Below, one piece after another: positions 21,846 to 64,000 of a stretch of DNA of 64,000 nucleotides. This DNA comes from Schmidtea polychroa. Taxonomy: Eukaryota. Numbering within the stretch: the first letter of the stretch is position 1; the number at the start of each line of letters is the position of its first letter. The stretch spans positions 140,306,001 to 140,370,000 of the forward strand of contig CM097885.1 in the NCBI GenBank assembly GCA_044892525.1. Direction: 5' to 3'. The notes beneath the pieces are model-generated. The model was not told the DNA's origin, searched no databases, and saw only the letters and a program-made list of their open reading frames with translations. A program made the translations under genes and the position numbers.

Positions 21846-22003
21846 ATTTAATTAAACGACTCCACAGACGAAATGTTTGCTATGGAACGTATCTCGTTTA
21901 AAGGACGGTCTTTGTAATTTTTCCTATTACTTCCTGTAATCGATCCTATTTCATTTACTTCAGATTCTGACGTGACATCATTTTCAAGGTCTTCATACGA
22001 ATA

Positions 22004-22909
22004 AGTCAGATTTCATGCCAAATATTTTCAATAATATTTAGATCAGGGCTGTAAGGTGGCCATTTTAAAATGTCGATATTCGAATTACTGAAAAACTCAT
22101 GCGCTTCCTTAGAAATGTGAATTGGACAATTATCTTGTTGGAATATAAATTGTTGAGGCATATTTAATTTAATTATCGGAATTGCCTTTTCTTCTATTAA
22201 TGTGATATATTTCTTAGAATTTATTTTTCCTTTAAGCAATTCATAAGAGAGTAGACCATTTGGGAGAATCATGCCCCAAAGCATAATACCCGGAGATCTT
22301 ATGACCTTTTTTATTCGTCTAGGTGTTTGGTTATCTTTTATCCAACAATAGTACGAATCGCATCCTGCCAAAGTAAAGTATTTTTCGTCAGAAAAAACGA
22401 CATTATTCCATTGGACTCCGGAAATGAGAAATTCTTTAGCTGCCTCAAACCTTCGTTGTTTCATTTTATAAGATAATTTGAATTTTGATGGTACATTTTT
22501 GTAATTATAATTCATACTTCTTAAAACCCTGCAAATTGTGTGTTTTGATACATTTAATTGCATAGTCTTTTTAATATCAGTTGACGAACATTTAACTTTT
22601 TTAGTAAATGAATCATTTACTAATGCAAGGATACGTCGTTTGTCTCCTTTACTTAATTTCTCTTTAGGTCCATTCTTCTTCTTATTTCTGCCATCATTTT
22701 TAACCATATATTGGATAGTGGAACGCGAAATACCATATTTCTTAGAGATTTCGCCATATGACCTTCCATTAGATCTTTCCAACTTTATTTGTAACCGGAT
22801 TTCTTTTGAAAAGGTCTATAAAATATATATTAAATAAATATAAGTCTATTATAATATAAATTCATCAATAAGTCAAAATAATGGAAAATAACTATATAAC
22901 ATATAACTG
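22004..22909 (-). mobile_element. Tc1/mariner (DD34E) transposon, 3'-truncated
   Basis: ORF 22006-22782 has an HTH region, FSDEKYF, QQDNCPIH and WPPYSPDLNIIE, with 34 residues between the second D and E. A putative TA|CAGTT terminus is at 22909; the other TIR is absent. Confidence 0.9.
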
Positions 22910-33517: not shown

Positions 33518-36500
33518 TAGGGTGGGTCGAATGTTAATAAATTTTGAGTTCAAGAAAGGAAACATGGTTAAAAAGTTGTATTTTGGTATAGAAAAATCGA
33601 ATCAAACCATTTTACTTAGATTTATGGACATTTACTGCTCCCAACTTTTCTCCGAAAATGCAGTTCAACATAAGTGTGAAAACAATGTAATTTGGCTAGT
33701 GTCGGAATGTGTTTTGCGCCTTTGTCCATATTTAGATGTAGCTTTCTTAAGAGCTTATAAGTATATTATTTACTCTCTTGGGCTGAGATAGTATATTCTG
33801 TGTCCTCATCCCGCATTGAAATATATCCTGACAACGTCAGTGATTAGGAAGGGCCAAATTTGAATTATCCTTTTCAAAGACAAAAATCAACTTTCGAAAT
33901 TATTTTTTATTAAAAACATCCAGCCAAAAGTTTAGAAATGTATTAGCGAGGGCATAAAAAGAAGTCACATGAAATCAGCTTTGCTTTGCACCTTGGGCAA
34001 TTCCTTCCTTGATTTTTTACACAGTAGTACCATACCATGTCTGGACTTGTGACCAAACACTTTGCAACTGGCAGAAGAAACATCTTTGATGGCTCTTTCA
34101 ACGGCTTGAGAATGACAGGGAAATTGTTCTAATGTAATTTTCTTATTCATCTTCAATTCATGATCCAATATATGAGATAAAAGAGGGGGAGGCGTCAAAT
34201 TACATTTTGTCCAGTCAATCATGTCAGCATATGATGTAGCAGACGACTGAAGAAAGACAGTATTCTTGTCCATAGTGCGAATCACTTCGGAAGGGAGAAA
34301 ATTTTGTCTTGCAGTTATGATTTTTTCTGTTGCAAACTTTCTGATTTCTTCATCATCATCACCAACAGCAGCTAGGAGTATATTTTCTGGATGTGAGAAG
34401 TAATTGTTGTTCTGAATGACAGGAAAGATGATTTCTTGGTCTGATGGATCCAAATCCTGCAGAAGTTGGAGCATATAAAAAATATTTCTTGCACCATCTT
34501 GGCATGACGAGTGAATCTTTATATAAAACCATGACGGTCCATAGAAATTGACAATAAATTTCACTATTCGCATGAGAGGTTCAGATGGAGCAGTTTCGGA
34601 CATATATAGTCGCAGAATTCTATTAGCTTTCGTTAGCCAGCGACTGTGATTCAAATTTCCTGGTTGTGCCATTTGTAGAAAAGGGACATCCTTGTTGTTG
34701 TGGTACCCTTTCTGGACTGCCAAGCATACTCTGAGGAAATACAATTGATCAGTGTTCAATTCTTTCTTGACATTTTCACTAATATCTACGACCTTTACAG
34801 GAAGGGACATAAAGGCTACTACGGGCTTGTCTTTTGGATCAAAATCAAGAACGCTTCCTATTTCACCACATGACGTTTTTGGACCTTTTGTTTCTCCACC
34901 ATCGACGACTGAAAAATACTTCCTGAATGGCAATTCATTTGCATGCAACAAGCATATCAGCCATTGTAGAGGTCGCCCTAGGCTTTTTTCGAGTCTTCTG
35001 ATTATTCCATTATTTTTTCCGGTGTTTGTATTGGTTCCATCGCACACAATTGCTTGAAGGGTCAGTGAGGACTGCGTGCTAACGATGATTGACATGATTT
35101 CTTTGCCAATATCCACAGCTTTACTACTTTGAGGTACAACATGATCGATATATGTATCCCCTGGAAAGGCGACAATCACATAATGCTCCTCTTTTAGGAT
35201 CCTTCTATGAAGTAAGGTGGAATCTTGTTTCCCGTCGAAACCGAGGCAAATCAAGTTTTTCGCTTCTGCTGAATGCTGTTCAATTTCTCTCTCCCTCCAG
35301 TACTTTCTCTGACGTCGTAATTTTGCGGGATCGATGATTGTTTGAGAGGATAACAGTTCCATATCTTTCAGAAAAGCGTTTACTAGCAAACACGTGTCTC
35401 TGTTGCTCACACCACATCTGTCAACAGCTTTACTTAATTCAGGATAATGTCTTCTATTTTGAAATTCATCACATTCTTCTACGCTTGACTCTGAGCTTTC
35501 TGTTGAATTGTCTAACTTATCTTTACTTTCATCACTAGCGGCTTCACTCTCCGTGTCACTTCTTGAGGTCGGATGTAGATCGTTAACTTCAGTGTCCATT
35601 ATTTCATTTTTCATTTGTTTTCCTTTTCCTGTAGGGCTGCTTTTCGCTTGTTTTCTCTTCAATTTTGAGGTTTCCTGTCTGTCCGTATTTCCGATTTTCA
35701 TGTTTCTGGTAGTTTGTTGGTCAATCCAGAACTCCCACTCTAAGGTAGGAATTTTCAAGGCCAATCGGCATGTACACTGACTTCTTCCACGAGCACCATC
35801 ATTAAAACATTTGCAGCAACATATGTCAAACAATTTGGAAAACGAGCTTAACTTATCTTGAAATTTGGCAGATGACCTCTTGCATACTGGATACTTCTCT
35901 AATTCACGCACTTTTGATATTAGTCGCTTGACACGAACCACAATACTACTGAACTCAACAGTTGGGATACTTGCCTTCATATAAATTTCCTTCACCTTAT
36001 TTGCGAGAAGAGTTGCTTGTTCGTTAAAGCCAGTATGAAATTGCGTACATTTCTCATTGTAACAGTAATCACGAAACACATCTTCACAAGTAGGTAATTG
36101 GTTTCTGGGTAGTTCACAAGTTTGACCAAACAGACAATGACGTGATTTACTTCTTGTTTTGCGAAATTGCTTATTTCTCTGTCCCTTCATAACTGCTCTT
36201 CTGTACTCAGCTCTGGCAAAATAAAAGTGAATCATCAAGTTAACTTTTTTAATTATGTCCAACAAACACTTGACATCCAATCGAAACAAATTAAATTATC
36301 TGAGTTTAGACTGACTAGTAGTATCCATGTGGATTATGTGTTGACTGTAGTGTGTGTGTTAGTATTGTTCAGAAGAAATTGTCTTTGTGAGTGCTTGTGT
36401 GAAGGTGCTTCCGTGAATTAACCTCTCTATACATGCACGCGTTAGCTTGGACTTGTGAATAGAGCATGTCAAAAATGGTCTTTCTGCAAGCGTGTGACTG

Positions 36501-45789: not shown

Positions 45790-46833
45790 TTACACACCCT
45801 TAGCTCTCATAGTCGATTTGTTCCCTAAAAGACCGTTGCACCTTAGGTGCAAGAAAACCCACTCACTATATCCAACCCCCTTAATCTCATCCTTAAATTT
45901 GCCTATAACTAAGTCAAATCTTATAGAATATAAAGGATGAGAGGGATTGTAATTGGAGGTGTCTAACAAGCCATCCGAAATCATCGCAGATTAAAGAATG
46001 TCAAGCCTTAGATTTTTGACCTCTAAGAAGAAACTCTCGGTATCACCCGCAACTATATTTATAACACAGTTAAACTGACGCTTATCTTTCTTTAATTCTA
46101 TGTATTATAATTGATACATCCTTAGTTTGGATAAATCCAGCACTGATTGTCCGATGTAGCTGGGTCTATCCAAACATATAGAGTCCTTATTGGGATGCGC
46201 TGCAAAAAGATCGTCATCCATTTTAATAGTTTTTCTAAATGCAGATGAATATGTAATCAAATTTTCAGCTGAATTAGATATCCTCAAATGTAATCTCTTT
46301 TTAAGGTTTTCAGCGGATTTACCGTATAAGCTATTATTATACAATTTAAATAAATCTCTATACAGTTCACTGCTTGATTCTGCTCTTAATTTTGTATTTT
46401 TATTTATATAATTTTTAAAAATAGGTGCTTGCTTGAATTTTATAGCCCTATATATATTTACAACTTTGGAACCAAGAGACAAATAAAGCTTGAGAAGCCT
46501 CCAATGAAAAACATGGTTCTTCTTGGGTCAATGTGTAAGCATCAGCTTCTCAACTTTTGAGTCAGGTGGGCACATTTTCTCAGGAGCAAGAGGAAAGTCA
46601 TTCAGGAAATCATGCAAACATTCAGGAATATCGATATCCACTTCCATGGTATAACCATAGGGAAGGATTTCAATATCATCATTCATAAACTCAAGCAAAA
46701 CATCATTTAAACCGTCATACACCCAAGTAAATTCAGCAAAAAGAAGATTTTGGCTAAGACCCCAAACATACAGATTATTTATATCAATGTATTCAGTATT
46801 ATCAGAAGGAGCAAGGTAATGTTTGTTAACAAA
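45790..46833 (-). pseudogene. Protein-primed family B DNA polymerase relic (Polinton/Maverick/adintovirus type)
   Basis: YIDINNLY, FPLAPEK, FKLYNNSLYGK, YIGQSVLDLSKLRMY, GDTES (GDTDS-like), DTSNY...HPLYS...GKFKDE. Broken by stops and frameshifts, and cut at 46833 by the LTR. Confidence 0.9.
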
Positions 46834-47418
46834 TGTTACCCATACCCCGGTATTCCTCCCTCGTGTTGGCGGGCACTACTCGGTTGACCACCCTTAGTTC
46901 AACTTTCTAGTCTAGGGGATGAATGCCTGTTACAATTATATCTTTCATTACTGTGTCACCCCCGAGCAGGGCCCGTACATAATCTATACTCCAACATAGC
47001 ACCCGTGAATTGCTTCACGTTGGAACTGTGCTATGCCGGCGAGACGCCAGTAAGCAGGTGAGCCACCATCTTCGGACTACTCCTTACTGAGGCCTCGACT
47101 TCCTACCCCTGACTGCCGATAGAAGGACTTACGTCTGCTCATTCTGTCACCCTGTCGCCATACTCTTGATTTAGATTGCAACTGGGCCATACTCCTCGAA
47201 TCTCAAAACACTCAATGCCATTTACCACTCAATGTAAATTCCTTATGAACGAAAAAAACAAAACCCGTATACAGACAAAAATTGTTTATTTCAAACATTG
47301 TAATACAGGCGCGTCGTAACTTATACATCAGAATCAGAATAAGAGAACACAAAGACAGGAAATGATGTTAGTTGATTCAGGACTCTCCGAAGGATGAGGT
47401 CACTTCACGGGAAAATCC

Positions 47419-48168
47419 TCAATTTTCCCACTCGGAGTCGGCGAGTAACTCGTCCAAATCGAAGAATTCGGAGGCGTTTTCCTCCCACATCACTCCAGCG
47501 GCAGATACGATCCGCCCTGGTGTTCCTGTTGTTAGGTTAATTACAGCAGGGGCGTTATTGACATTACTACCGAGGTCAGGCAGTTGCTTGGACTGCTTTG
47601 CGGCTATCCGCTCACGCTGTTTCCTTTTACGTTCGGCCCTCGATAGCTGCCGACGCTTTGGTTTGTTGGTCGATGAATTGTTTGGGGCTACCGCCGATGT
47701 AGAGGCGACGTTAGGCAGTACCCGACTATTTCCAACAAAAACTACCTCTAGTTGCCCTGGCGAGAGTTGCGTTTCTACGCACGGCCGGCAAGGTTTTTTC
47801 GAAGGGGGCGATGATTTGGCCGAAGTATCATGGTGGGTCGGAAAGAGATTGTCGGCGTCACCGATGGGGAGTTTCACTATCTTCCTAGTTGCCGTAGCCT
47901 GGATGTACACTTTATGCAGCGCCTCGGACTGCTCCTTGATCAAACTTCTTTGGGCACGACTCTCGGAGATTAGAGCGTCCCGGCAATGTTCACTTCGGTG
48001 TAATTTCTTTTGGGTCTCTTTCATCTGGGCGGGACTAAACCATGTCCCCTCTAACTCGTCTATTTTCTTTTTGTACCGTCCGATCTGGGTCTGTAGGTCC
48101 TTGATTATTGCGTTCTTGTCGGAACAAGAAAAACAGGGCCTGAGGACGGATTTTGCATTGGGTAACAT
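47419..48168 (-). CDS. LTR-encoded 249-aa protein: CxxC, coiled coil, basic NLS-like segment, acidic/aromatic C-terminus
   Basis: Intact ORF preceded by the acceptor ctcttcttag and followed by AATAAA at ~47290. Homologues at 257, 26376 and 29366. Confidence 0.8.
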   Translation of the reverse strand: MLPNAKSVLRPCFSCSDKNAIIKDLQTQIGRYKKKIDELEGTWFSPAQMKETQKKLHRSEHCRDALISESRAQRSLIKEQSEALHKVYIQATATRKIVKLPIGDADNLFPTHHDTSAKSSPPSKKPCRPCVETQLSPGQLEVVFVGNSRVLPNVASTSAVAPNNSSTNKPKRRQLSRAERKRKQRERIAAKQSKQLPDLGSNVNNAPAVINLTTGTPGRIVSAAGVMWEENASEFFDLDELLADSEWEN

Positions 48169-49876
48169 GTCTGCTAGCTAAGAAGAGTAATAACACTAAA
48201 TGGGATAAATCAAGTTTAGAAAATCATCATCTTCCGCCACTATTCGTTAATCAGTATTAGACAGTTTTACCGGAAAAGAAAAACGGATTATTTATCAAGA
48301 GGGATTTCCTATGCCATCGACCTATGCGGGCTCTAGGTGTTTATTCACTAGAAAACCAACTGGCAACATAAGGCTTTACTTAACGAAGGTTGTACGTCAT
48401 TGTTAAAGAAAATGAAAATTGCATGTTTGAGAGGAATTATTGATGACGGAAATTTTCCTGAAGAGATAAATAGCATTGAAAATTCAACCCGAACTACATA
48501 ATCACTAAGTGAACATTTAGCTAATCATTATAATGATTTTATAGATAATTAGATAAGTTGGTTGTAATTTATTATTAATTGAAAATGTTAAATTTTAGCA
48601 GTTCCATTAATAGACGTGAACTAATTGAGTTGAATTTATTTGTATTTTGTTTAGGCTTTCGATTATATTGTCTATATTTTATTATAATTTGGTTTTCAAA
48701 TCTCACATTTATTTACTATTTTAACATAAATTATTGAGTTGTTGGTGACTCATGTTATCATCACTCATGTCTGGTGCTTTCGGTAAATAGCCGAGATTTT
48801 CATCTGACACACCCGGTGGATTTTTCTCAAGTTAGCCGTTCGTGGTGAATTATCTACTATCGGGTTAGATGACTATGCGATCTCAATAAATGTGTCACCT
48901 GGAAGATAGACTCGTAGAATTACGGCCAGTGATATCTGTGTTATTATTGGTGAGCACTAGCATGTGGACTTTGGTTATTAGAACTCGCCATGTGTGCATT
49001 TACACATGTGTGCGGGTACTCACTTCGTGAGACTCTTATCCTATTCGGCAGCTTGCATGAATCATCAGATGTTATATTATACTGTGTTGAATTTCTATCT
49101 CTCATGAAAATTTTGCATAGGAAGATTTTGCGTAACGTTGTTTCTGGATGGCATTCGTTTCGTAGACAAATTGGTCAACTATTCAAGCTATGGTTTCTAC
49201 TCCCCTCATGGATTTTATCATTGTCAACATGCCCATTATCTATATCGAGTTGGAAATTATTTAACTATCGCTGGAAATACAATTCGACGAAATGCGGAAA
49301 TTCTATCATCCTCTGTGACATTTCTAAGACTCGGATTTTTCTCCCATGGAGGGTTGGTCGGATCAGTTATCTCTCACCCTACCTTTGCATCAGTTGACAC
49401 AGACGTTTGGCATTCGATATATAAAGGAAGGACTTATTTAAGTGGTTTTGAAATATATTTTTCTTGATCAGATTCGTTATTATCTCATGGTTTATTATTT
49501 TTGAGAACTATTTGTTTTCCACAATCCACCACAAGTAGGGTTTAGAGGGACGTATCAAAATTGATTGCACGTGATAAACATAGCTGATAAAAATAGCAGT
49601 TATGAAAGTTGGTAGGTTGAAGGTTTCAGGAATAATTTCGAGAGGAATCACGAACGCAGAGGATATGCTACAAATGGTGCCCAGACTGATTTGACGGAAA
49701 GTCCTATATAGATCTTCAGATGGTAGTAACAATTTCAATTTGCTAAAGACGATAGTATGACGCCCTCAATCACCATGCGAACTCTCGAACGAGATTTTCC
49801 TCATATGACTACACTTCTCATTGCTTGATAGTTACCCTCTCTCTACAGTATCGTCCACATATTTTAGTCACATCTT

Positions 49877-50005
49877 CAGCGACGGACCCGTGAGGAAGCC
49901 CTCACATTACGGCCCGAATCAGCTGCGTGATTGAAAAACGCCATGTCCACCGGCTGAGCTCCCGAGGGCACCTCACACCATGACATGGAGTTTCTCAACG
50001 CCACG
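49877..50005 (-). ncRNA. Conserved structured cis-RNA candidate (motif 1) downstream of the LTR splice donor
   Basis: Stems ttgagaaac/gtttttcaa, ccatgtc/gacatgg, cagc/gctg, gggcc/ggtcc and gtgagg/cctcac. Most G-U pairs favour the minus strand. Confidence 0.55.
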
Positions 50006-50222
50006 TTTCTCGGAAATTTATAATCATTAAATAAATATGCATAAAAATCAATCAGAAAAAGTTCATAATAATTCATTTATTAAATAACTAAATCCTCTAA
50101 TTAGCAAATGTATCATTAGGAATCAAACGAAAGGACAACTGTTTTCAGTTTAAATTTATAATTATTTCATAAAATTACATGACTACTATTACTTAGATAA
50201 AGTATAAATCGAAAAATTCCTT

Positions 50223-50495
50223 ACCAAGTAATTTGTATAGATTTTTAGGCTGAGTCGGAAGGTATCGAATCGAATAAATGGTTACTCGAAATTTACGTCG
50301 ATTGTTAACTGTTTGATAATATCTCCTGGTTTCTAGATTGATTCTCGTACGTTGCTGCTGTTTACCTGTAAAGTTGGTTGTTTAACGGTAACTGTTAAAA
50401 TTTGTCTTACCTGTAAAGTTGGTTGTTTAACAGTAAGTTTATAATTTTTGTGTTTCCTTATATATTAATTTTTGATGTGTGCGGACCAATCAGAA
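50223..50495 (-). promoter_or_regulatory. LTR promoter (CCAAT 50486-50490, TATA-like ~50458-50466) and 5' splice donor (cttg|gtaagg at 50224)
   Basis: The same order, ccaatcagaa then TATA then cttg|gtaag, is conserved at 40261, 40215 and 40096. A 25-bp direct repeat at 50362-50386 / 50407-50431 contains further donor-like sites. Confidence 0.55.
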
Positions 50496-51099
50496 TTGAG
50501 TGCCGCTTAATTTTATTGCTTTAATTTATTTTTCTTGTTTTTGAGTTATTTTTTCCTATTTTCTTTATTTTTATTGTGTTTTTATTTATTTTCTTTAATT
50601 TCTTTATTATTTACTACATTTTACGTTATTTTTTTGTCATTCTATTGTCCTATTTTAATTTTCCTTATTTTTATATTTTTTTGTTTTAATTCCTATTTTC
50701 TAATTTTTTATTTTTCTTATATCCTATTCTATTTTATTCTTAAGTTTGTTTGTTTTTTTTTTATTTTAATTTAATTATGTTTAACCTAATTTCTTGGATA
50801 CCCTTCGACTCAGCCCAACAAATCACTCGGGGACCCGACAAAATTGCGTCCCACAATTACATACTTGAGCTACTCTTATTCTCTCATAAAAAGATAAACA
50901 CATTCATAAAAAGATAGCATAGTGATTAACAAAATTATAAACATCAATAGAACTTTATTAATAAGATATAGGTCAAATCAAGACCAAGCAGTCATCACTT
51001 ATGGTGATGGTTTATATACAAAGCAAAATTTTCACAATGTAATGTTTTAGTTCAGTTATGGTATTGTTCGATTATTCTGATGGTTTTGGTTGGAGTTTG

Positions 51100-51720
51100 T
51101 TACTGCGGTTGGGAATGGATATTATGGTAGGCTTGAAGACTGGATGATGGTTGAGGAGATGCTTTGTTGGCTAATCTGGGTGGGCTTGTGGTTTGGGTAG
51201 CATTGGTTATTTCGACTGGGTTTTGTACGGTGGCTCTAGATTTCGAGCTCTGACATTTTTTCTTAACTTCGAGGATTTTTAGGAAGGTTATGAGGCATAA
51301 TGAGATAGTTTCTGCGACCACTACGTAGAGAAGGTAATGGGTGTCGCTGTTATTGGAGGGTGTTTCTGTTGTCTCGGCAGGATTTTCGAACACTTCTTGT
51401 TGAATTTGTTGTTCCAACTGATCGAAGTGTTGGACTTGTTCGAGTATTTTCCGGTCTATCATTCGGCATACAGGGCTATTCTGGCATAAACGTCTGATGT
51501 TGTTAACATATGACCGAACCGATTGGATATTATGGAGGAGGTTGGTTTTTATTGTATTGGGGTATTTGCATTGGCAAGGGTCTGATTTGGCTTTTTGATT
51601 CCGATTGCGGTGGTCTCGTATGCTTGTTGGTTGGGAATTTAATGGTGGTTTCTCCATCAGGTGATTTATCAATACCATTACTGTTATTGTCATACCATAC
51701 CACATTGTACTAATATACAT
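51100..51720 (-). CDS. Accessory ORF: probable single-pass membrane protein
   Basis: Hydrophobic N-terminus, four Cys in the putative ectodomain, TM segment YLLYVVVAETISLCLITFL, and an S/T/P-rich tail. Confidence 0.6.
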   Translation of the reverse strand: MYISTMWYGMTITVMVLINHLMEKPPLNSQPTSIRDHRNRNQKAKSDPCQCKYPNTIKTNLLHNIQSVRSYVNNIRRLCQNSPVCRMIDRKILEQVQHFDQLEQQIQQEVFENPAETTETPSNNSDTHYLLYVVVAETISLCLITFLKILEVKKKCQSSKSRATVQNPVEITNATQTTSPPRLANKASPQPSSSLQAYHNIHSQPQ

Positions 51721-51759: not shown

Positions 51760-52470
51760 TTAGTTAAACGGTTCTGTTTTGGGATTATTTTCGGCGGTTC
51801 TCATCAGGGTAGACTCCGCTTTAATGACCCTGTGTCTCAACTCGGGCAGCATTTCCAACTGTCTGTCCTTTTCACGGGCCTCCCTTTTCATGTGTCTTAT
51901 CTCCTTCTCTAATCTTCTAATTTCTTCCCGTTTTTTATCGAGATTCCTTTTTAGTTCGATTTGCAGGAAATCTTGTTCGTTTTCTTGCGAAAGGTTTCGT
52001 TGTTGTTGTTGTTGCTTTCTCTCGATCTCTTGGTATTTGCGAATCCATTTCTTCATTTCCTCACTTTCTCGTTGTTTTTCCTCCAATTGTCGATTTAATT
52101 TATTTATAGTTATTTGGCGTTCTTTCGCCTCTGTTTTCCAGTAGTCCTGGATTACTTCTTCTGCTTTGAAGCTTGCTCTTTCTTCCCATAATTCTTCTGC
52201 GATCTTTTCCCAATTTCTCCCTCGCTTTCGTTGTTCTTGTAACCATTCATTTCTCTCTTCTACTTCTCTCTTTACTTCTCCTAGTACTTTGCACTCTTTC
52301 TTTAGTACTTTAATTATTTTCCGGTCTCCTATGTATTGGTTTATTAGTCTCTCGTTTTCCCGTCTCTCTTCCTGCAATTCTTTCTTTAGAGTTCGTGTTT
52401 CTGTGGTTTCTACTTCAATCTCTCCTTCTTCCGCTTCACTCATGAGTTCTATTATCTCCTCAATCTTCAT
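51760..52470 (-). CDS. Accessory ORF: E/K/R-rich coiled-coil protein (236 aa)
   Basis: Intact intronless ORF with heptad-like charged helices. Confidence 0.7.
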   Translation of the reverse strand: MKIEEIIELMSEAEEGEIEVETTETRTLKKELQEERRENERLINQYIGDRKIIKVLKKECKVLGEVKREVEERNEWLQEQRKRGRNWEKIAEELWEERASFKAEEVIQDYWKTEAKERQITINKLNRQLEEKQRESEEMKKWIRKYQEIERKQQQQQRNLSQENEQDFLQIELKRNLDKKREEIRRLEKEIRHMKREAREKDRQLEMLPELRHRVIKAESTLMRTAENNPKTEPFN

Positions 52471-52627
52471 ATCTATAATATTTATAATTAATCATGCGCT
52501 ACAGTGCGACTCATACTTATACATTCATATACAGTTTAGGAAATTAGGGTTACAGCCCCTCAAATACTTTTACAATACTTTTAATTTTTTTGTTTGGGAT
52601 ATAAGTCCCGAATTTTTTTTAAATTTT

Positions 52628-53701
52628 CTATCTTTTTATTCGCCTATATACGAAGGTTTCCTCTTGACCCACGTATCCCTCATCGCTCTCGACCGATGCC
52701 TGTAGCTGGATGGCAATGGGGTCATATGGTATGTAATATTGGGGAATTTGAGCTCTCAACTCGTGAACTTCATTTCGTAGTGCTCTAGTGATATTCAATT
52801 CTTCGTCGAGCAAATAGGTGAGGTATCTCGTCTCATCATCTTTGGCTTCTAATTGCCTATCTAACTCCTTTATCTTTTCCTCGCCCTTCCATTTCTCGAT
52901 CTCTATCTCTAGATTTTTGAGGTTTTCGGTATACATTTTCCGTTCGTTTTCCAGCTTCTTATTTTTTCCTGCCAGTACCATATTTCGTTGTTCTAGAGCT
53001 CCCTGATATCCATTGACATCTCGTTCCAGCGCCGTGACCTTATTTATTAGTTCCACGACTCGTCCTGAATGCTGGAGTATCATTTCTTCCATCGCTGCAT
53101 TCTCGTGCTCCTTGATGGAGATTTTCATAGCCAAATGTCTTTCAAACTCCATGGCCTTGGTCTGCCATGTTTGACTTCGGGCGGCAATCTTTCTCAGCCG
53201 TTTGAGTTCCTCTTTTATCACTAGGTTCTCTTCCCATTTGCCTTGTTCGCTTTCGTACTCTAATCTCATAGGCAATTCTTTCATTTCCTTTTTCATTTCT
53301 CTGTTCTGTCGCTTCCATTTCCGGGCTTCGGTCAATAGATGTCGCATCTTTTTCTCCTCTTTTTGTTTTTCGGTCTCTCGTTTTTTATTCTCATCAGTCA
53401 GTCTTTTCCGCGATTCTTGTAGTAGTTGTTTTAGATAGTGACTGTGCGATTCTTGTCGAGTGTTTTCTAACGAAGCCCATTGTGCGGCCCTTTTACATGT
53501 CTCCGCTTCCGTTCTTAAATTGTCTACCAGCCATTGGTATTTGTGAGTTTCGTACTCCCTGGCTTCCTCAATGTGATTTCGGGTGAGGTTAGCTAATTGG
53601 AACATCACCTTGTTCCATTTCTCACTATATTCTTTGGGGATTTGTGTCTTGTTGGTATTATTTGGGGCTATCGTAGTTCCGGTTGTTCTTTCTTGTGTCA
53701 T
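52628..53701 (-). CDS. Accessory ORF: coiled-coil protein (357 aa)
   Basis: Intact intronless ORF with long charged helices. Confidence 0.72.
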   Translation of the reverse strand: MTQERTTGTTIAPNNTNKTQIPKEYSEKWNKVMFQLANLTRNHIEEAREYETHKYQWLVDNLRTEAETCKRAAQWASLENTRQESHSHYLKQLLQESRKRLTDENKKRETEKQKEEKKMRHLLTEARKWKRQNREMKKEMKELPMRLEYESEQGKWEENLVIKEELKRLRKIAARSQTWQTKAMEFERHLAMKISIKEHENAAMEEMILQHSGRVVELINKVTALERDVNGYQGALEQRNMVLAGKNKKLENERKMYTENLKNLEIEIEKWKGEEKIKELDRQLEAKDDETRYLTYLLDEELNITRALRNEVHELRAQIPQYYIPYDPIAIQLQASVESDEGYVGQEETFVYRRIKR

Positions 53702-53897
53702 TTTCTAAATCATATATTCTGATTAAATATCATCGCAGTATTAGATTTTATTATTCAGTTGATGTTTTTTCCTGGATTTTTTCGCTTTAGTTTTGGGTTG
53801 TTGTATTTGCGGATCCCATACTACTATTATATATTATTTTATAGGTTATATACACCGATATATACAGATTTATTATATACAACGTTATTCGCACTGG

Positions 53898-54845
53898 CTA
53901 CTCGGTTCTGCTCTTTCCCTCCTTCCTCACTGTCATCTTGATATATACGGTATCATTTCTCGCCATATCCTCTATCTTTTGTTGTAAAATGAACGTAGGC
54001 GCTCCTGTTGCTGATCCTTCTTCGTCGAGGGGTCTCTGGTAAGCCATCTGATTCCCCGTTGTTTTGAAGCTTTGTTCATGTATACTTTGATTGTTCATTA
54101 TTACAATGTTGATTTTCGACTGAAACGGCCATTCTAATATTTCATCATACTCCCCTTTACATAACAGAAAAAATATCGAAAAGTGTGTGTCTAATCCGGT
54201 TCCGTCCCCGTTGGGATATATCTTCATTTTCATTTTGTATCCATTCTTCCATGAGAGGAATGCGGGACTGGTTATTCTAGTATCTTCTCCAATTTTTGCT
54301 TTTCGTATCTTTTCCTTCACTCCCGAAATTTTCCATATGTAAGGTGCGGTTGGTAGTATTTCATTGAGATTTATTTCGGTTATTTTTTGATCTAACACTT
54401 CGGCTTGCTCATTACTGATTTCCATTCGATTTATTTGCATTTTTATGTTGGCTCGAGCTTGTTCGAGAGCCTCTCTTTCTTCTAGTAGTTCTTTTACTAA
54501 TGCCTTCAGTGAGGTTATTTCTATCTCCAGTTGTTGCACTTTCTCTTCACTTTCTTGCAACGCAGTTGACCACATTTCTGCATGATTTATTACATTTTCT
54601 GTTAAATGGTGTGGTAAGTCTCCTCGGTGTAATAGTTTCTGACAGCCCCATTTACTTAGAACACATCTCATCCTTTTCTTTTCACATTCTTTTAGATGCT
54701 GGGCTAATTTTATTATTCCCCCTTCGTTGCATCCGTTCGGGCATTCGCCACAGAACTCTGCACATACCTTTTCCTCTTGGACATTGTGATGTTTGATGGT
54801 GAGATTTCCTTTGCATCGTACGCCCTTGCTCCTGCATATTAGATA
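53898..54845 (-). CDS. TRAF-like protein: TRAF-type zinc fingers, coiled coil and MATH (TRAF-C) domain
   Basis: YIWKISG...SPAF...GYKMKMKIYPNGDGTG..THFSIFFLLCKGEYDEILEWPF is a TRAF-C signature. The frame stays open upstream of Met 54671 to 54845 and includes CPNGC...LAQHLKEC...C...GC...HHL. No introns. Confidence 0.9.
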   Translation of the reverse strand, partial: YLICRSKGVRCKGNLTIKHHNVQEEKVCAEFCGECPNGCNEGGIIKLAQHLKECEKKRMRCVLSKWGCQKLLHRGDLPHHLTENVINHAEMWSTALQESEEKVQQLEIEITSLKALVKELLEEREALEQARANIKMQINRMEISNEQAEVLDQKITEINLNEILPTAPYIWKISGVKEKIRKAKIGEDTRITSPAFLSWKNGYKMKMKIYPNGDGTGLDTHFSIFFLLCKGEYDEILEWPFQSKINIVIMNNQSIHEQSFKTTGNQMAYQRPLDEEGSATGAPTFILQQKIEDMARNDTVYIKMTVRKEGKSRTE

Positions 54846-55094
54846 CTACTTGTGCTAGTCCAGCGCATTGTTGTTTCCACATATCCTCGGTCGTTGTATT
54901 GCGATTTATTTCGTTATTTCCTTGCTCCATTCTTAATTTTTTATACATTCTCAATCTTTTTCTTATTTAATTTTATATTGTTTATTTCTCCCGATCGTTA
55001 TATATTATTAATACCGCGCTTATATACGAATATAATACTGTTATATACATAAGATATACTTACTTTTTACAATTATATACAGTCATAACCCTTT

Positions 55095-55469
55095 TTATAT
55101 TTGTGGATTTGGAGGGCACTGCATATTCCAGGCCTCCATCCACTGTTCTTGGCTCATTTTACTGGGCCTTTTTACTTGATGTTGAAAATTCCTGGCTCTG
55201 ATCATTTCGAGTTTGTTACGCTGCTGTTTATCTCGGATTATTTTTATCGTCCCCCCCGTTATAGTTATGAACGCTCCGGTTATTATTATTCCGCTGATCC
55301 ATATCATCTGCTTCACACTGATGATCTCTGAGTTTCCATTGTTTGTTATTGTACTCGCTGTTTCTGCATTTCCCTCTTTCTCTGTTTGGCTTTTTCCTTT
55401 CTCCAACCATCGTATTCTTGTTATTTCCTCATTGATCCCTTCTTTTGCCATTTTTTGTATTTTTTCCAT
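55095..55469 (-). CDS. TM plus cytoplasmic segment; probably the frameshifted end of the polyprotein
   Basis: MIWISGIIITGAFITITGGTI hydrophobic helix. The frame is open back to ~55505 and overlaps the end of the 55421-60124 ORF. Confidence 0.55.
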   Translation of the reverse strand: MEKIQKMAKEGINEEITRIRWLEKGKSQTEKEGNAETASTITNNGNSEIISVKQMIWISGIIITGAFITITGGTIKIIRDKQQRNKLEMIRARNFQHQVKRPSKMSQEQWMEAWNMQCPPNPQI

Positions 55470-58400
55470 TTCCTCTTCTGATACGTAGTTATCTTGGTTA
55501 TATCATTGGTCTTCTGACGTTTTCCTTCTTCATCTTCTTCGTCATTGATCTTTCTTTTCTTTCCTCTTTTCCCAGGATATCGTCGACATTCCTTTTCTGG
55601 TCTTTTTCTCACGATACAGACCGTGTATTCCTTTGGCGGTTGTTGTTGTGTTACATATTGTAGACAGTCTTCTCCTGGTCCTAACCTTGAAATACAAACT
55701 TTGTGTTCTTTCCTTGGTTGGAGTTGTGTTATCACTACTTCACCTCCTTTACCCAGGTGCACCTCTTTCCATTTGACTTTCGTTATTCTCTTTCCGTTTC
55801 GATGTTGGTATGCCTCTTGTATTCCCACTTCCGTTATCGGTTCTGTGTCCTCGTTCATCAATACTAATCTCCGATATGCTCTAGACATGCATCTTCCCAG
55901 TATACATCTTTCCTTTAGATCCCATTCCTCCTTCAGATCCCATTGTTGTTCTTGCATTTGCTTTTTCTTTTCTTGCTTTAATTCCTCCTCTTTGTTATCG
56001 TGATTTTCCGCTTCTTTGGTCTCTTTTATCGTTCTCGTCCCTCCATGAGCTGTTACTAACTCTATCATGGTTAGTACAATTATCATTAGTATCATATTTG
56101 TTTCCATTTCTTTGTTGGTGAAGGGTAGGCATACCCTCTGTTTTCCATTATTTGGTTTTTCCTCCTCTTTCGTCTTGTTTCCCGGGTTGTTTCCTTCTTT
56201 TCCCGTACCTGGGTCTTTATTTTCCGGGTTATCCTCTTCCGGTTTTCTTTTCTCTTTGTCCTCCTTTCGACCTCTTTCGTCATTATCATCGTATTTATCT
56301 CCCCCGCTGTCGTTTAAAATGTCGTCCTCGACATTTATATCGTTTAATAGTCTTCGGTATGCTGTTAGTACTCTATTTCTTGCTAATTTAGCTTCAAATT
56401 CAAACTCTTTTCTCCCGGTTGCTGCGTGTCTCTTCCGGTTCCATTCCTTTACTAGTTCTCTCAATTGGATCCGGCGGTGTTTTCCAATTCGTTGTTGTTC
56501 GTTTTGATTTTTCGTGAATCTCAGGTCTTCTCTATTCAATACAATTAATATGATTTTAGGTGTCTCCCCTTTAGTTAATGTATTTTTGACCATTGCGTTT
56601 TCGCCGTTCTCATAAAATTCGTTTACGTTTATCGCATATTTATTACTTTGTGGCACTCTCCATGTCAACAATAATTTCATTGCTTCTAGATTTTTTCGTA
56701 CCGTATTCCACTGGAATTGAGATGTGTTTTTGCAGATATTTTCGACTTCTTCCTTTGTCGCGTTTTTGCAGATGAATCTGATCATTTCTAGGTTTGGCTG
56801 AATGGTTGCCCAATCCATTGTGGAATTTCCTTCGCTTGACTTTTCGTCTAATCTCGATCCTGATTGATGTAGTATATGTAATGTTTTTGGGTGTATTTTC
56901 GTTATAGCTGCATACATCATGGCGGTTTCGCCTTGTTCGTTTTTCGTGTTGGTTTCCTCTCCCAGATCTCTGAGAACTCTTATGATTGTAATTGCTCGGT
57001 TTTCTTTTGCTGCCAATATTGCTTGTTGTAACGGTGTTCTTTGATCCTTGTTCGACATGGTAAATGCTCGTGGCATGAAAGTTTTGATTTTCCCGATATC
57101 TAAATCCGTTGTCTGATCTCTTGCGTATGTATGTACGGTCTTTATTATTTTCGACAATATCATTTCATCTGATAACTCTAGCATTTCTTCAAAGAATACT
57201 TCTTTTGCTTTACGTATTATTGTTCCTTGATCTGAATTCATCGGTTTTGTTTTGATGACGTTATTTGCTGTAGTTTGGTTCGTTGGCGACTTTGATTCTT
57301 TTGACGTCCCCTTCTTTATTTTTATTTTCTTTCCGGTTGGATTATTGATTCGTTCTTCTGCTGTAAGTACTTGAATAATATCCAAGTAATTCTCGCGAAT
57401 GTTGTTCATTGTGTCCATCATATATAACACACTTCCCGTTTCCCAATATTTATTTCGTACTTGGTTAGTGAATTGAAATATTGATTTTTCGAATGTGTCA
57501 ATTCGCTTTTTTAATAACTGCTCATCTTTATGATTTGTGAATTTTATCCCTCGTTCTACTAATTGGTTTGGGATTTCGAATAATTGATGTCCTTTCATGG
57601 CTTCTCTCATAAGCGTGTTCTCTCCTCTCGTGAATGCTTCGTTTACGTCAATCATGAAATCATTTTTAATTGGATTTCTCCATGTAATTAATATTCCGGA
57701 AATTGTTGTTAGTTTCTCTTTGATTGCCGTTAATAATCCGTCATACATGTTTCCGACTTCTCGATTATCCTCGTATGCTAGTAGTTCCATCAACGTCGTG
57801 AACGCTTCGGTACTTTTCCCTTCGATTGCATGATGTAGTGCGTTTTTCTGATTGCGATCTTGTGTGGTTATTTTTGATCCTGTGTCGAGTAATGCGATTA
57901 TAATGTCTTTTGTTTTGCCTCTGTTTGCTGCTATCATTAGTGGTGTGTAGCCTTGGTTATTTTCTTGTTCTGTTGATCTCTTGCAGTCGTGAAATGCTTC
58001 TATTGTTTCTAGTATTTGTTCGTTGTTACCCACTTTCATGAGTTTATGTAATGGTGTGTCTCCATAATGATCTGTTACGGTAAATAATATTGGCCATTGA
58101 CTTTTAACTACTCGTAGCAGTGGATGTGTCCTCTCTCGGTTTGCGTAATTTTCGATCATAGTTAATAGACCTCCTAATATTTCGAAGTCTAGTCTGTCTT
58201 TTGCCCATCCGGGTATCTTAATTTTTACCTCCTTTACAATCTTTTCCGCTTCTGATGGTTGGATACCCAATCGTCCAGTCGTTGGTTCTGCGAGCTGTTG
58301 CATCATGTTCATTCTGTAAGTTTGAGAACGTGTGGTTAACGTACGACCTTCTGGTTGACTGGTGGCTGTTTTTGGGATCGGTTTACATCGTGCTACATTT

Positions 58401-60215
58401 ACGTATATTGGACTGGTGAACGGATTATTTACTAATTTCACTCTTACGTTAGTTTCACCCACAAATAAGATCTCATATGGCCCTTTTCCGTTCCGCTGTA
58501 ATTTTTTCGTGGTTCCCGGAATCAATTCTGGTGTTTCTATCATTACCCAATCACCTGTTTGAAAGGTATGTTGCTTCACGTTTTTCTTTCGATCGTGTAA
58601 ATCTTTATAACTTTCCCGGTAGAACTTGATATTTAATCCCGCAGTTTCCCAAATCTCTTGCATTCTCTCCTTGAATTTTGTGACATAATCGTCTATCTCC
58701 ATATATTGCGATATCGGTGGTTGATATTCCAGGTCCATTGGCATGTTACATTCTCTCCCGTACATTAATTTGAATGGGCTCATTTTCGTTGATGCATGAA
58801 TTGACATTCTATAAGCCATAAGACATAGATTTATGTATTCGTCCCAATCTCGTTGGTGATGGTCGACGTAATTTGATAGCATTTGTATAAGTGTTCCGTT
58901 AAATCTTTCTGTCATCCCGTTGGTTTGAGGATGATACGGTGATGTTCTCAACTTTGAGATTTTGAAGTAATTGGTTACCTCGCTCATTATCTCACTCATG
59001 AAATTGGTGCCCTGATCTGTTAGTATTTGTTTCGGCGTTCTATATCGGCAACATATCTCTTCTACTAAGATTTTTGCGATTGTTTTAGCTTTTTGATCTG
59101 GCATAGCGAATGCCTCTGGGAATTTCGTGAGGTAATCCGTAATTACCAAAATATAAACATTTCCTTTATCCGATTCGGGTAATGGACCAATTACGTCCAT
59201 AGATATCATCGTCATCGGTTCTATTGGTACTGGCATTGGCGTTAAAGGTGCTTTCCATTTTGATCCAGTATTCCTTCTGGTCGCACAAGTTAGACAATTT
59301 TTCACCCATTCGGTTACGTCTTCAGTTAACGTAGGCCAAAAATATTTCTGTTTCATTCTTGCCAGCGTCTTTTTCGATGACATATGTCCTCCCAATCTTC
59401 CATCGTGATATTGCGTTAATAACTCTTTCCGTCGGTTTTCCGGTATACACATTAATCGTTTCTCTCCATCCATTATCAGCAACCAATCTTTCTCTATAAC
59501 GTATCGATGTCGGTGTTTATCCATATGTTCCTTTAATTTCTGGTCTTTCTCGTACACTTCGGTTTTTCCCGTTTTTACATAATCGATAATTTGTTTTAAT
59601 TCTGCATCTTCCTGTTGGTCCTTTCGCAATTGGCAAAAATCCAAGTCTTCCGCTACTATCAAGCATATGCGTTGCATTTCTGAATCTACCAAATCCGGAA
59701 AAATGAATCTCGACATACAATCGGCGTTGGCATTTGCTCTTCCTGCTTTGAATTTTATAAATGGAGAGTATTCTTGTAATTGCATGGCCCATCTCATTAG
59801 TCTACTTGATGCTTCTTTATGTTGCCCTAACCACACTAATGGTTGATGATCTGTGGTTATGCATATCTCGTGCCCCCATAGTAAATATCGGAAGTGTTTG
59901 ATGGCTTGTATTATAGCCAATGCTTCTCTTTCTGTTACTGAATAGTTCTTCTCGTGCTTTTTGAATGTTTGACTGTAATAACCGATTACTCTCTCTTTTC
60001 CCTCGTCATCCAGTTGTCCTAAAATCGCTCCTGCTGCATATCCGCTTGCGTCTGTTGCTAATAAGAACGGTTTCTTGAAATCAGGATGTACGAGGATTGG
60101 TGCTTCAATCAATTTATCTCTCAACGTTTCGAATGCCTCCTGTTGTTCTTTTCCCCAAATAAATGAGATATCTTTCTTTACCAGTTCTTGGATTGGTTTT
60201 GCGATTCCTGCATAA
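55421..60215 (-). CDS. Pol C-terminal part: RNase H, integrase (to ~58380), two ankyrin modules, signal-peptide-like segment, FN3-like domain
   Basis: LATDASGYAAGAIL, ITTDHQPL, HDGRLGGH...CLTC, ISMDVIGPL, LTDQGTNF, TSPYHPQTNGMTER. Ankyrins GDTPLH, GYTPLMIAA, RTPLQQA, GETAMMYAA. Tail METNMILMIIVLTMIELVTA and VITQLQPRKEHKVC. Confidence 0.93.
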
Positions 60216-63200
60216 TTTTTTTATGAATTTTCGGTAATACCCACATAATCCTAGGAACTCTTGCACTTGCGTAACGGTTTTTGGTGCTGGACACGTTTTT
60301 ATTTTTTCGATGTTTCGTGGATCTGGTTCTTTTCCTTTGGCTGACACTATGTGTCCCAAAAACGTGACTTTTTCCTTTGCCCAATCGCATTTTGAAGGTT
60401 TGAGCTTGAGTTTCCATTGTCGTAATCGAATAAATACATTTCGGATATCCTCCAGATGTTGTTCAAATGTCGCTGAATAGATTAGCAAATCATCAATATA
60501 TACCATACATTGTTTGATTCCATGAGTGACAAAGTTCATACACCTTTGAAATGATGTTGGTGCGTTGGTCAGTCCGAATGGCATTTTTCTGAATTGATAT
60601 AGATCTCGTCCCAACGTGAAAGCGGTCTTCTCTTTGTCCTCATCTTTGACTTTAATTTGCCAGTATCCATTTTTTAAATCTAAAGAAGTAAAATATGCTG
60701 CCCCTTGCAACATGAGTAACATTTCATTAATGTCTGGCAATGGATAGGTATCCCTCTTTGTTACTGCATTTAATTTTCGATAATCAATACAGAATCTTTG
60801 CGTGCCATCTTTCTTTTTCACCATGACCACTGGAAACTGCCAAGGTGAGCAACTTGGTTCGATTACTTTTGCGTCTAGCATTTTCTGCACTTCTGCTTCG
60901 GCTATTTCCTTTTGCATCTCTGCTAGTTTGTATGGTCTTAATGCGATTGGAGTTTCATCTATCAGTGGGATTGCATGTAGGGTGACATCACATGTACCCA
61001 AATCCAAATCTGAGATGGCGAATATATCTTTATATTCCACTAACAATCGGTGCAATTTTCTCTTTTCGGCAGCTGTTAACAATGTACTGTCGATTGTCCA
61101 TAATTCGTCATTTTTGTTTACCTCGTTGGTCACTTTTGGTAGTTCTATATCCATCATTGGAGTCAATTTTCCCAATCTTTCATTCTCATAGATGATTTTG
61201 TCTTCCTCTTCGAAATTCGTGATGTTGATCGGTATCACTCCTTCTTGATTTATTGTTATTATTTCTCTAGCGAGCGGTAATTCTCGTCGCTTTTCAAATG
61301 ACTTACTTGGTTCGAAAATAACTTCTCCTTCCATTCCCGTGTCTACTTTTATCTGACAGATCATCTGTGATTTTGCTGGTACTATTATTTTCTCTGGACA
61401 TCGGATTACTGCATTCATTTTGCATATTCTGCCGGTTTTATCCTTTAGACACATGGTTGTCAAGTCGATTACTACTTCTTTTAGTAGTTCTGGCATTAAA
61501 TCTGTTCCGATTATGCATGGTACACTCAGTTTTGGTATTACTGCTAAATACGTTTCGATTTCGTTATCTTGGTATTTTAAGGTGGTCCACCATCTCCCGA
61601 CCACGTCTACTGTTTCTTTACTGCATGCTATGATGTGGATTGTTGTTGACTCGATATCTTTCCAATATCTACTGGGAATTTGATTAATTGCTATTGCTGA
61701 TACGTTAGCTCCGGTGTCTATCATAGCATTTGTTTCTTTTCCATTGATTTGGATCATGACTGTTACTGCCGGACCTCCAGGTAAACTCATTGCTGCTATT
61801 GTCCGTACATCGTCCGCTTGATCTACACTTCTGGTTCTCCTCGTTGGCATATAATTCATTCCAGATTGATTTGGTAATTGCGGATACATATTTTGTGTCA
61901 TATTCATTGGTGCTACTTGTTGTCCGACAATATCTGGTGGTATATAGCTTCCATTGGCTATCCACGTATTTGTTTTTTCCTTTTCCCAATATGGTGCCGT
62001 TTCAATTTGCTTTTCCTTGGGATGTCCACTGGGGTACGGATATTTATTGTTTCCTTCGTCGTCGTCGTCACTATCGCTGTTAGATGATTGACTTCTGAAT
62101 CGGTCCAAGAATTTTGGCTTGTTCTTTTTCAATTGTCTTCTTGTTGCTTCATCGTACATGGTTTTTCGGAATTGTCTACCTACTTCCTCGTCTGTTCCTT
62201 TAATCTTTGTTAAGATTTTAATCAATCGCTTTATTCGATGAATGTCTTTTGAGTGACCATGTAATACCATGGTTTTTGCTAAAAATGGTAGAAACCCTAC
62301 TATCATTTTCCAATTTACTTTCTTTTCTCTCTTGTATATATCGAAACATGCTAACATTTGTGTTAATATTACTCTGACAATTTGAATTATGAGTATGATT
62401 CCCAATATTCCTGCCATCATTTGTCCAAATACTAAGAATCTTCCCCACATTGCTTTCATCATATTTGACGTTGCGTGCTGGAAATGATCCGGTGATAGTA
62501 GTAGTTCGTAATTTGGACCTGATTGATAGTTTGTTCCCCCAGTTATGGTGACCATATTTGACAATATTGACTCACGTCTGGCTGGGAAAAGTATGTTTAG
62601 CCGTGCGGTTTCTAGATCCGCTGGTGAATACATACCTCCGTTTGATACGTCTATGGGCTTGAAGTCCTGCTCCGTGGCGAGTTCTATTAATCCAAACTTC
62701 TTAGGTTCCTCCACTGTGGCCCTTACCGGTAACATTATCCATTTCCCATCGGGTCTCTCGTACAATGGTCCGTACGCATTGGAACAGTTAAAGAGATTTG
62801 GATAGAAGCCTAATGGGTTCATAATTCTAGTAACTGGCTGGACGAATCGATTTTGTCCTTTATAACGAATTTCCAACTCGTTTGCGCATTTCCCTGTAGG
62901 TATTGTGGGTTTTTCTGGCATTCGTGCAAACGTCTTAGTGCACGCATACGTATACATCACTTCGCCCACCATCCTACCAAAATGTCCATCTGGTAATGGG
63001 AGTGATGGCATCGTATTATCAGGGTGCGTTATTGCGATAGCTAGTTTTGTTTTCAGTATCTCTTTATTTAATGAACAATCGTTTTGTATAAGATCGTAGT
63101 ATACTTTTTGCAGTGTCGTTTGTCCGCGATGGAATAAAAAATCCATTTTGTTGTTGGCGTATAGGTACAATTTGACGTCCTCCGTGGCTATCTTTCCCAC

Positions 63201-64000
63201 TGCTCTATCTATTATCTGTCTTGACATGTAGATCCCTGCGTAGTTGGTCTTGTAGACGATACTATCGCATTTGGTGGTCTCCTTTTCTCTGATGAATCTC
63301 ATACCCAGGTCTGGGTCGTCTGTGATCAGTGCCGTTGGTGTTTTTTGTGTTGCGAGCCTCTTTTCCCTGGGCGCGGGTGGTACTGGTTTCCCATTTCGCA
63401 TTCTCACCTTTCCATTTCCATCCTCGTCATCTTCGTTCTCATAAATTTCCCCTTTTACTTCATTGAACAGGGCACTTTTTAACAATTGGAGTCGGCATTT
63501 TTGGGTGTTAGCTTCATATATTATGGTCGAAACCCCCGTCTTGCATACGTTTTCCGTAGCCTTACATATGGGGTTGGTTTTCATTTGATAATTATTGGCG
63601 TCAAATTGTGCTTCGTATTCTTTTAATTCCACTGTATAGGACTCGATTACTACTACCCCCGATATCGCCTCTCCTCTGATCGTATACGTACCTCCGTTAC
63701 ATGTACCATCAGTTGATTTTACGCGTCCGGCTACATAAATGCTTTCGGTTTTAATCATTCCGCTTTGCCCGTGTATCGTTACTCCGTCTCGGATCCTCAT
63801 CGCTCCGGTTCTAAACAGTTCTTTGCAATCCTCTCTTTGTATAGGCACTATTTCTTTATCCAATCCGGGTAGTATGAGAGTTGAATATGAATATTGTCCA
63901 CAGTAATACGCCAACACACGTTTTGATACTACGCACTCCTTTGCCAGCGTCCTGATGAAATCCGATTCTTGATACACGTGATATGAGACCTTTTTGTTCA
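60216..64000 (-). CDS. Polyprotein N-terminal part (5'-incomplete): chuvirus-like class III glycoprotein, TM, aspartic protease, spacer, RT
   Basis: The frame is open to the window edge (NKKVSYHVYQESD...). Glycoprotein Cys pattern: YYCGQYS, DGTCNGG, NDCSLNKEILKTKLAIA, GEVMYTYAC, CANELEI...FVQPVTRI...C...GKW. TM MAGILGIILIIQIV; protease [47 protein letters not shown]. A 1-nt excess in an A7 run (60216-60222) shifts the frame. Confidence 0.9.

Follow-up and report, generated by a model that had tools for sequence, protein, structure and literature searches.

A truncated TRAF gene in a Burro-type retroelement of Schmidtea polychroa and its RING-bearing sister copies

Burro elements and the element in the window

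Burro or GYPSM1 elements are giant Gypsy-like LTR retrotransposons of planarians (Jurka 2007, Grohme et al. 2018, reviewed in PMC6431247). They carry MATH_TRAF_C, BIR and ankyrin modules, with TRAF-C in an accessory ORF, and according to the review this domain belongs to the polyprotein in Burro1 and to an upstream ORF in D. tigrina; a meddling of Burro with apoptosis and ubiquitination has also been proposed there (PMC6431247). The Burro element and its TRAF-C domains are already known. A TRAF expansion in planarians is described in PMC6109357 and PMC7586133, and the main text of the latter contains no word starting with "transpos"; the accessible parts of PMC8532177 and PMC11410931 mention Burro, but not TRAF. 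In the literature searched, neither a full-length downstream RING-TRAF nor selection on it was found; figures and supplements of Grohme et al. 2018 and Lee et al. 2026 may show it.

The window analyzed here, a stretch of 64,000 nucleotides from Schmidtea polychroa, contains a TRAF ORF that was first reported at 53898..54845 (minus strand) as an open frame of 315 codons without introns. TRAF proteins form trimers, their MATH domains bind the tails of partner proteins, and their RING recruits an E2. We think it very probable that the window TRAF is the remnant of a Burro-type RING-TRAF accessory gene, cut by a loss of about 800 bases, and that intact sister copies encode a predicted ligase and adaptor.

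The ORF lies in a Burro-type Gypsy LTR element of ~31.4 kb, a 2.4 kb insert included. LTR alignment placed the 3' LTR, 3,957 bases bounded by TG and CA, at 46864..50820 (minus strand) and the 5' LTR beyond the window, from L031:7846 to L032:4252. The pair differs by 10 mismatches in 3,959 aligned bases (99.7% alike), and the element is flanked by an identical 4-bp target duplication. Only the 5' LTR contains the insert, which runs over 2,448 bases from L031:8986 to L032:1433, has a stretch of A at one of its ends, includes (TA)n as well as ~1 kb of (AAT)n, and found no match in the window after masking; it interrupts the counterpart of a 252-codon frame that lies within the 3' LTR at 47419-48177 and has no Pfam match. 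A short G-rich word adjoins the 5' LTR (L031:7827-7845), and we take it to resemble a tRNA-Pro primer-binding site. There is no clear purine tract before the 3' LTR, and no tRNA gene was found in the window. Decayed fragments of a type-B DNA polymerase (PF03175) lie at the insertion site (window 46105-46875), and because of these fragments the data suggest that the element landed in a Polinton-like remnant; L032 beyond the 5' LTR contains ORFs that resemble them.

L031 contains a Gag (retrotrans_gag and three CCHC zinc knuckles) that shares its frame with env, and PF03732, PF00098, PF24664, RVP and RVT_1 follow one another in a single frame from L031 into the window end. The middle of the polyprotein, assigned by Pfam to a viral fusion glycoprotein (env), protease and RT, occupies 60114..63998 (minus strand), in frame with the upstream Gag. 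The frame is lost in the link between RT and RNase H; the two share one frame in three of five sister loci. RNase H, integrase, ankyrin repeats and a C-terminal region follow at 55421..60220 (minus strand, Pfam). The ankyrin modules pointed out in the sequence-only reading are thus real (Ank_2, E 8e-18) and sit in the pol frame after the integrase. ORF comparison with the sisters indicates that the frame at 55095..55502 (minus strand) is likely the C-terminal polyprotein tail after a second frame break; in the sisters this frame is already open where the fetched stretch begins.

Three further ORFs, all on the minus strand and without a Pfam match, lie between the TRAF ORF and the 3' LTR. Accessory ORF 1 (52628..53704), coiled-coil-like by its composition, is conserved in the sisters and has a weak homologue in a Burro1-like family described below, accessory ORF 2 (51760..52491) is likewise coiled-coil-like by composition, and the last ORF ahead of the 3' LTR (51100..51720) has hydrophobic stretches. 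The spacers 53705-53897 and 54955-55094 are AT-rich and have several TATATAA-like words ahead of accessory ORFs, which could possibly be internal promoters of the individual ORFs. An ORF with an IAP-type RING (L031:7032-7586; PF13920, E 4e-11) lies between the 5' LTR and gag, in contrast to the IAP ORFs of the Burro1-like family, which sit downstream of the TRAF.

This anatomy agrees with that of Burro/GYPSM1, which are ~30 kb long with LTRs, in the order of the long frame from Gag with its three CCHC knuckles over env, PR, RT, RH and IN to ankyrin, and in the presence of MATH_TRAF_C, IAP-type modules and accessory ORFs. It differs in that the polyprotein of the window family has no MATH, that its TRAF forms an ORF of its own downstream and includes RING and zinc fingers, where the review names TRAF-C only, and that the IAP-type RING ORF of the window element precedes gag and is not accompanied by a Pfam match to BIR in this element. 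The MATH between Gag and env that is specific to Burro1 is absent here and present in L064/L065, the pol being ~60% identical. No Pfam match was obtained for BCL2-like, ubiquitin-like or dUTPase-like polyprotein regions, for which the review partly used HHpred; the region examined aligns with the Burro1-like polyprotein at 34-36%. Elsewhere the window contains an inorganic pyrophosphatase exon (10065-10577), a second Gypsy pol remnant (19749-21851), a Tc1/mariner transposase (22006-22815) and a transposase-like ORF of 776 codons without a Pfam match (33965-36295).

The truncated TRAF copy and its missing stretch

The TRAF-C signature that had first drawn attention to the frame is clear: PF21355 matches with E 3e-26, and the MATH or TRAF-C domain was placed at 53928..54341 (minus strand; PF22486, residues 169-306, E 3.9e-26). 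The accompanying zinc fingers and coiled coil are real as well, the zf-TRAF match in the window ORF being weak (E 0.0013, below the Pfam cut-off) and the coiled coil being taken from the model of an intact sister, in which a helix of coiled-coil length is predicted between zinc fingers and MATH. The 315-codon frame is not TRAF throughout. Its first 13 codons (54808-54845) are DNA of an upstream small ORF read out of frame, and TRAF homology begins only at residue 14 (54806). According to sister alignment and Pfam, the TRAF remnant at 53898..54806 (minus strand) comprises 302 codons and the stop and encodes the last zinc fingers, the coiled coil and MATH. It corresponds to the 3' two-thirds of the accessory RING-TRAF ORF of the element; in the sisters this ORF has 462 residues, and the identity to its C-terminal 302 is 83-91%.

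The upstream border of this remnant is a copy-specific junction at 54806..54810, where sister alignments show that ~800 bases are missing: the 3' half of the small upstream ORF, the spacer, the TRAF start, the RING and the first zinc fingers, the TRAF part of which amounts to the first 160 codons of the 462-residue protein. Against 26 of the 29 sisters fetched first, the alignment needs a single gap of 755-801 bases at 54808-54810; the remaining three (L003, L010 and L012) have upstream differences of other kinds. This gap accounts for the start at 54845 that had seemed unresolved. It had also been considered that the frame is joined by a frameshift to the ORF 54682-54954 (minus strand), but translation identifies this ORF as a hybrid, consisting of the front of a separate conserved accessory ORF of ~120 residues and of out-of-frame TRAF DNA in which it hits an early stop; the sisters have an ORF of 122-128 residues with the same N-terminus. 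Splicing to an upstream exon, the other route suggested, would need a source of the RING, and a tblastn search with the N-terminal 159 residues of a sister TRAF found no match in L031, L032 or the window itself; the RING of IAP type that L031 does contain is part of a different ORF.

This copy indeed has no RING, as the sequence-only reading had suggested; a RING-less design of the element is not supported. When 53800-55000 was searched against the genome from which it comes, all 39 other listed matches begin at query base 193 or later (40 of 892 candidates scored). RING DNA passes the cut-off in 36 of the 39 sister copies examined (29 fetched first and ten more), among them all ten of a second set that was picked as nearest on the upstream side of the junction; L004 stays narrowly below the cut-off (108/125 bases), and in L010 and L012 other breaks have removed the RING. 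The frame from RING to MATH is unbroken in 26/39 sisters (22/29 of the first set and 4/10 of the nearest set). A full match to the junction was found in the window copy alone (40 scored of 174 candidates), and the junction 23-mer occurs once in the 781 Mb assembly (G000) with up to one mismatch allowed. A RING-less subfamily was ruled out, as the junction is unique and the sisters carry RING DNA. The missing RING is, judged from these sequences, damage of one copy, and the norm of the family is a complete TRAF.

The uniqueness of the junction raises the question whether the gap is an error of assembly or consensus in a repetitive element, the real copy having a full RING-TRAF. Mis-joins are possible among hundreds of similar copies, and among the contigs of four public runs none of those listed bridges the junction, the loose ends at 54807 fitting the full-length form. 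The missing bridge is weak evidence, because unitigs break at such branch points and not all pieces were listed; one contig of run X1, moreover, matches 54807-54928 with zero differences. As the element is otherwise coherent, with matching LTRs and a target duplication, and as other copies (L010, L012, L096) bear different large breaks, we regard such an error as improbable.

A real loss of ~800 bases likely arose either by a template switch during reverse transcription or by repair after insertion, and these are not distinguished, because the family is mosaic. A switch between two subfamilies was considered as well; the nearest relatives do differ on the two sides of the junction, but in a wholly mosaic family this is not diagnostic. 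Even the closest sister is only 94-95% alike, despite the young LTRs, and for this reason the parent of the window copy is not among the sisters examined and may already have had the gap.

The damaged copy could still be thought of as a working decoy of the TRAF1 type, in which translation restarts at Met59 after the hybrid ORF and yields a protein of 257 residues, coiled coil plus MATH, by which TRAF trimers are poisoned. The 315-codon frame has no Met before residue 59 (54669..54671, minus strand, from the positions of Met in the sequence), this codon sits 10 bases past the stop of the hybrid ORF, and it would be the sole, putative route to a RING-less product from this copy. Coiled coil and MATH are undamaged, and TRAF1 lacks RING and ligase activity (PMC7586133). 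The putative product would consist of coiled coil and MATH only, as in TRAF1 or RING-deleted TRAF2; TRAF1, however, is a fixed gene with its own start codon, and the window copy is a single lesion without the start codon of its family. RING-deleted TRAF2 constructs are dominant-negative, and a dominant-negative action had been proposed for the window TRAF. This does not fit a family whose TRAF has a RING as its most constrained part and of whose RING-less junction 781 Mb of sequence contain a single instance. Further arguments against a decoy are that this one copy faces hundreds of RING-bearing candidates, that nothing points to its spreading or to selection once the RING was gone, that the remnant owes its low dN/dS (0.09-0.14) to the time before the loss, and that the copy has other lesions, namely the RT/RNase H frame break and the 2.4 kb insert in the 5' LTR. 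We therefore consider a decoy highly improbable and return to the damaged RING-TRAF gene, from which a TRAF product is likely absent; the window copy, cut by the loss, is likely silent.

Intact sister TRAFs and their descent

The dN/dS comparison that had been called for was carried out with the 22 intact frames, whose 231 pairs are not independent in a mosaic family. It gave 0.10-0.12 for the 182 pairs with dS >0.3 and 0.27 for the closest pairs, with differences mostly at the third codon position (7962/5554/22786 at positions 1/2/3). By domain, dN/dS is 0.16 for the N-terminus, 0.07 for the RING, 0.11 for the zinc fingers, 0.08 for the coiled coil and 0.10 for MATH. The intact TRAF copies are under purifying selection, and the value of ~0.10 speaks against a decayed passenger, which had been named as a possible refutation. 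In the stretch that encodes the RING, at least 40 copies (of 322 candidates) show 99-100% agreement.

The intact sisters have the architecture RING, zinc fingers, coiled coil and MATH, in the order and with the fold of TRAF2/3/5-type and flatworm host TRAFs. Among solved structures, the intact ORF matches the RING-zinc-finger chains of TRAF6, TRAF5 and TRAF2 with E down to 1e-14 and the TRAF domains of TRAF3/2/1 with E 6e-28. The model of an intact sister (mean pLDDT 85.8, pTM 0.39, so that domain placement is unsure) predicts fingers, a 75-residue helix and a MATH sandwich, and it matches the TRAF domains of TRAF1/2/3 with E ~1e-17. Pfam scores of the RING lie near or below the cut-off. All eight RING ligands are kept in 20 of the 22 intact frames, the fourth being Cys and not His, so that the RING deviates from canonical C3HC4. 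In an alignment with TRAF2, the serine triad and the Ser-Gly-Cys motif of MATH, residues of the peptide groove, are replaced. Since the fourth RING ligand and the MATH groove differ, the partners of the element TRAF may differ from those of textbook TRAFs.

The Cys ligand is shared with flatworm host TRAFs. It occurs in the element TRAFs, in 7/7 host-like loci (L066-L071) and in seven of the eight proteins P0002-P0009, while the fourth ligand in 113 other proteins is His in 61 and Cys in 4, with no pattern match in 48. The flatworm TRAF RING is accordingly of a C4C4 type, with Cys for the His ligand of other animals. Host TRAFs used for comparison were the Dugesia TRAF2-like P0005, the Dendrocoelum TRAF-4 P0009 and Smed-TRAF-2 from PMC7586133. 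The TRAF of the window family differs from TRAF2/3/5-type and flatworm host TRAFs in being borne by an element and in its partly replaced groove residues.

A MATH profile search of the genome gave 1,551 candidates, of which 150 were scored; by hand count, ~50 of the scored matches lie in frames of 487 codons and 13 in frames of more than 2,000 codons. Two loci of the 487/490-codon class and two polyproteins were checked and could be assigned to a Burro1-like family, whose polyprotein includes a MATH and which has a stand-alone RING-TRAF downstream. This family (L063/L064, L065, L080) resembles that of the window in its pol (59-62% identical) and in its RING-TRAF, which follows the same small ORF at the same position and falls into one clade with the window-family TRAF. 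It differs in that this TRAF is only ~30% identical and has a frame of 487-490 codons, in its own second MATH in the polyprotein, and in the BIR-like and IAP-RING ORFs after the TRAF. One Burro1-like copy has both TRAF-derived modules, the downstream RING-TRAF (L063:5914-7374), followed by BIR-like and IAP-RING ORFs, and the polyprotein MATH (L064:8377-8829), which are at most ~37% identical to the MATH of the window family.

Seven single-frame TRAFs from RING to MATH (L066-L071) have no Burro-like context within 10 kb. Because non-Burro TRAFs thus also occupy one frame, the absence of introns, which had been read as consistent with a capture of mRNA, does not prove one. Exons for MATH, in frames of 180-210 codons, cluster densely at ~1-5 Mb and 105-124 Mb of G000:C2; these seem to be host TRAF expansions with introns, distinct from the TRAFs borne by elements. 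Since such split-exon clusters exist in the same genome, a host gene with introns could have been mis-joined into the element, as had also been raised. Most of the 39 similar places, though, show the same element context on both sides, in support of the TRAF being cargo of the retroelement, and host MATH domains are only 32-40% identical to that of the window; we consider such a mis-joining extremely improbable.

The phylogeny suggested for the frame was run as well. The element TRAF is ~27-31% identical to host-like TRAFs, and among named proteins those of Dugesia and Dendrocoelum come closest to a host-like TRAF. In a first tree, the two element TRAFs come together at 93/95, subject to a warning about long branches. 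A word-indexed protein search with the intact TRAF gave one match among 3308 candidates, and a full HMMER search gave P0125, P0137 and P0138 as close unnamed relatives. With three unnamed proteins added, the element TRAFs group at 100/99 and are nested in a clade that they form with flatworm TRAFs at 100/100, and they thus descend from a flatworm TRAF lineage. In both trees they are long branches with a shared composition bias, which could inflate their grouping. The unnamed TRAF-like proteins P0125, P0137, P0138 and P0002, three of which were placed in the tree and all of these with the element TRAFs, are likely Burro relatives from other planarians. A MATH-only tree, from which 12 split-exon cluster loci, L072 and L075 (at the pattern step) and L073 (dropped) were left out, is poorly resolved, with 95/65 for the two downstream TRAFs and the polyprotein MATH unplaced. 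The best reading of these sequences is that both element TRAFs derive from one old capture of a flatworm TRAF, and the nesting in the tree would give the direction of this capture as from host to element.

Possible roles of the element TRAF

For the intact copies, we predict a TRAF protein that works as a trimer, both as ubiquitin ligase and as adaptor. Its coiled coil would bring about the trimerization, its MATH domain would bind the tails of receptors or adaptors, and RING and first zinc fingers would recruit an E2, through which partners would be ubiquitinated. In a cell with an active element, stress or innate-immune signaling might thereby be tilted toward survival, jointly with the IAP-type RING and ankyrin modules of the element.

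Alternatively, the intact TRAF may serve the cycle of the element itself, such as budding or the turnover of its own proteins, or may be a scaffold without ligase activity. Such a role would be an alternative with respect to function alone and does not conflict with the deletion in the window copy. Selection shows a need, not a purpose; the MATH groove and one RING ligand are unlike those of vertebrate TRAFs, and the element has an env, a ubiquitin-like module having been reported for Burro (PMC6431247). On the other side, the RING is the most constrained domain, and its Cys-for-His replacement is also seen in host TRAFs. PMC8807557 reports that RNAi of planarian traf-2 affects homeostasis and survival, and in PMC13465017, which describes Lee et al. 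2026, the Burro1 IAP is reported to protect stem cells. A role confined to the element or a ligase-less scaffold appears rather unlikely to us, though well within consideration.

The finding in the window itself is a broken copy of a known element and matters little. Of more weight is that the TRAF cargo of Burro is a complete RING-TRAF under strong purifying selection, common to two families in which it is ~30% identical; the intact RING-TRAF offers a concrete target for the effects of Burro on apoptosis and ubiquitin signaling, a question posed in PMC6431247. TRAF counts of planarian transcriptomes, as given in PMC6109357 and PMC7586133, may include element copies. We tentatively propose, as a possibility with somewhat less than an even chance, that at least two Burro families keep one anciently captured full-length TRAF ligase in hundreds of copies, and that planarian cells use it, or are steered by it, as a second survival module beside the Burro1 IAP. 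If this is true, part of the planarian "TRAF expansion" would be retroelement cargo.
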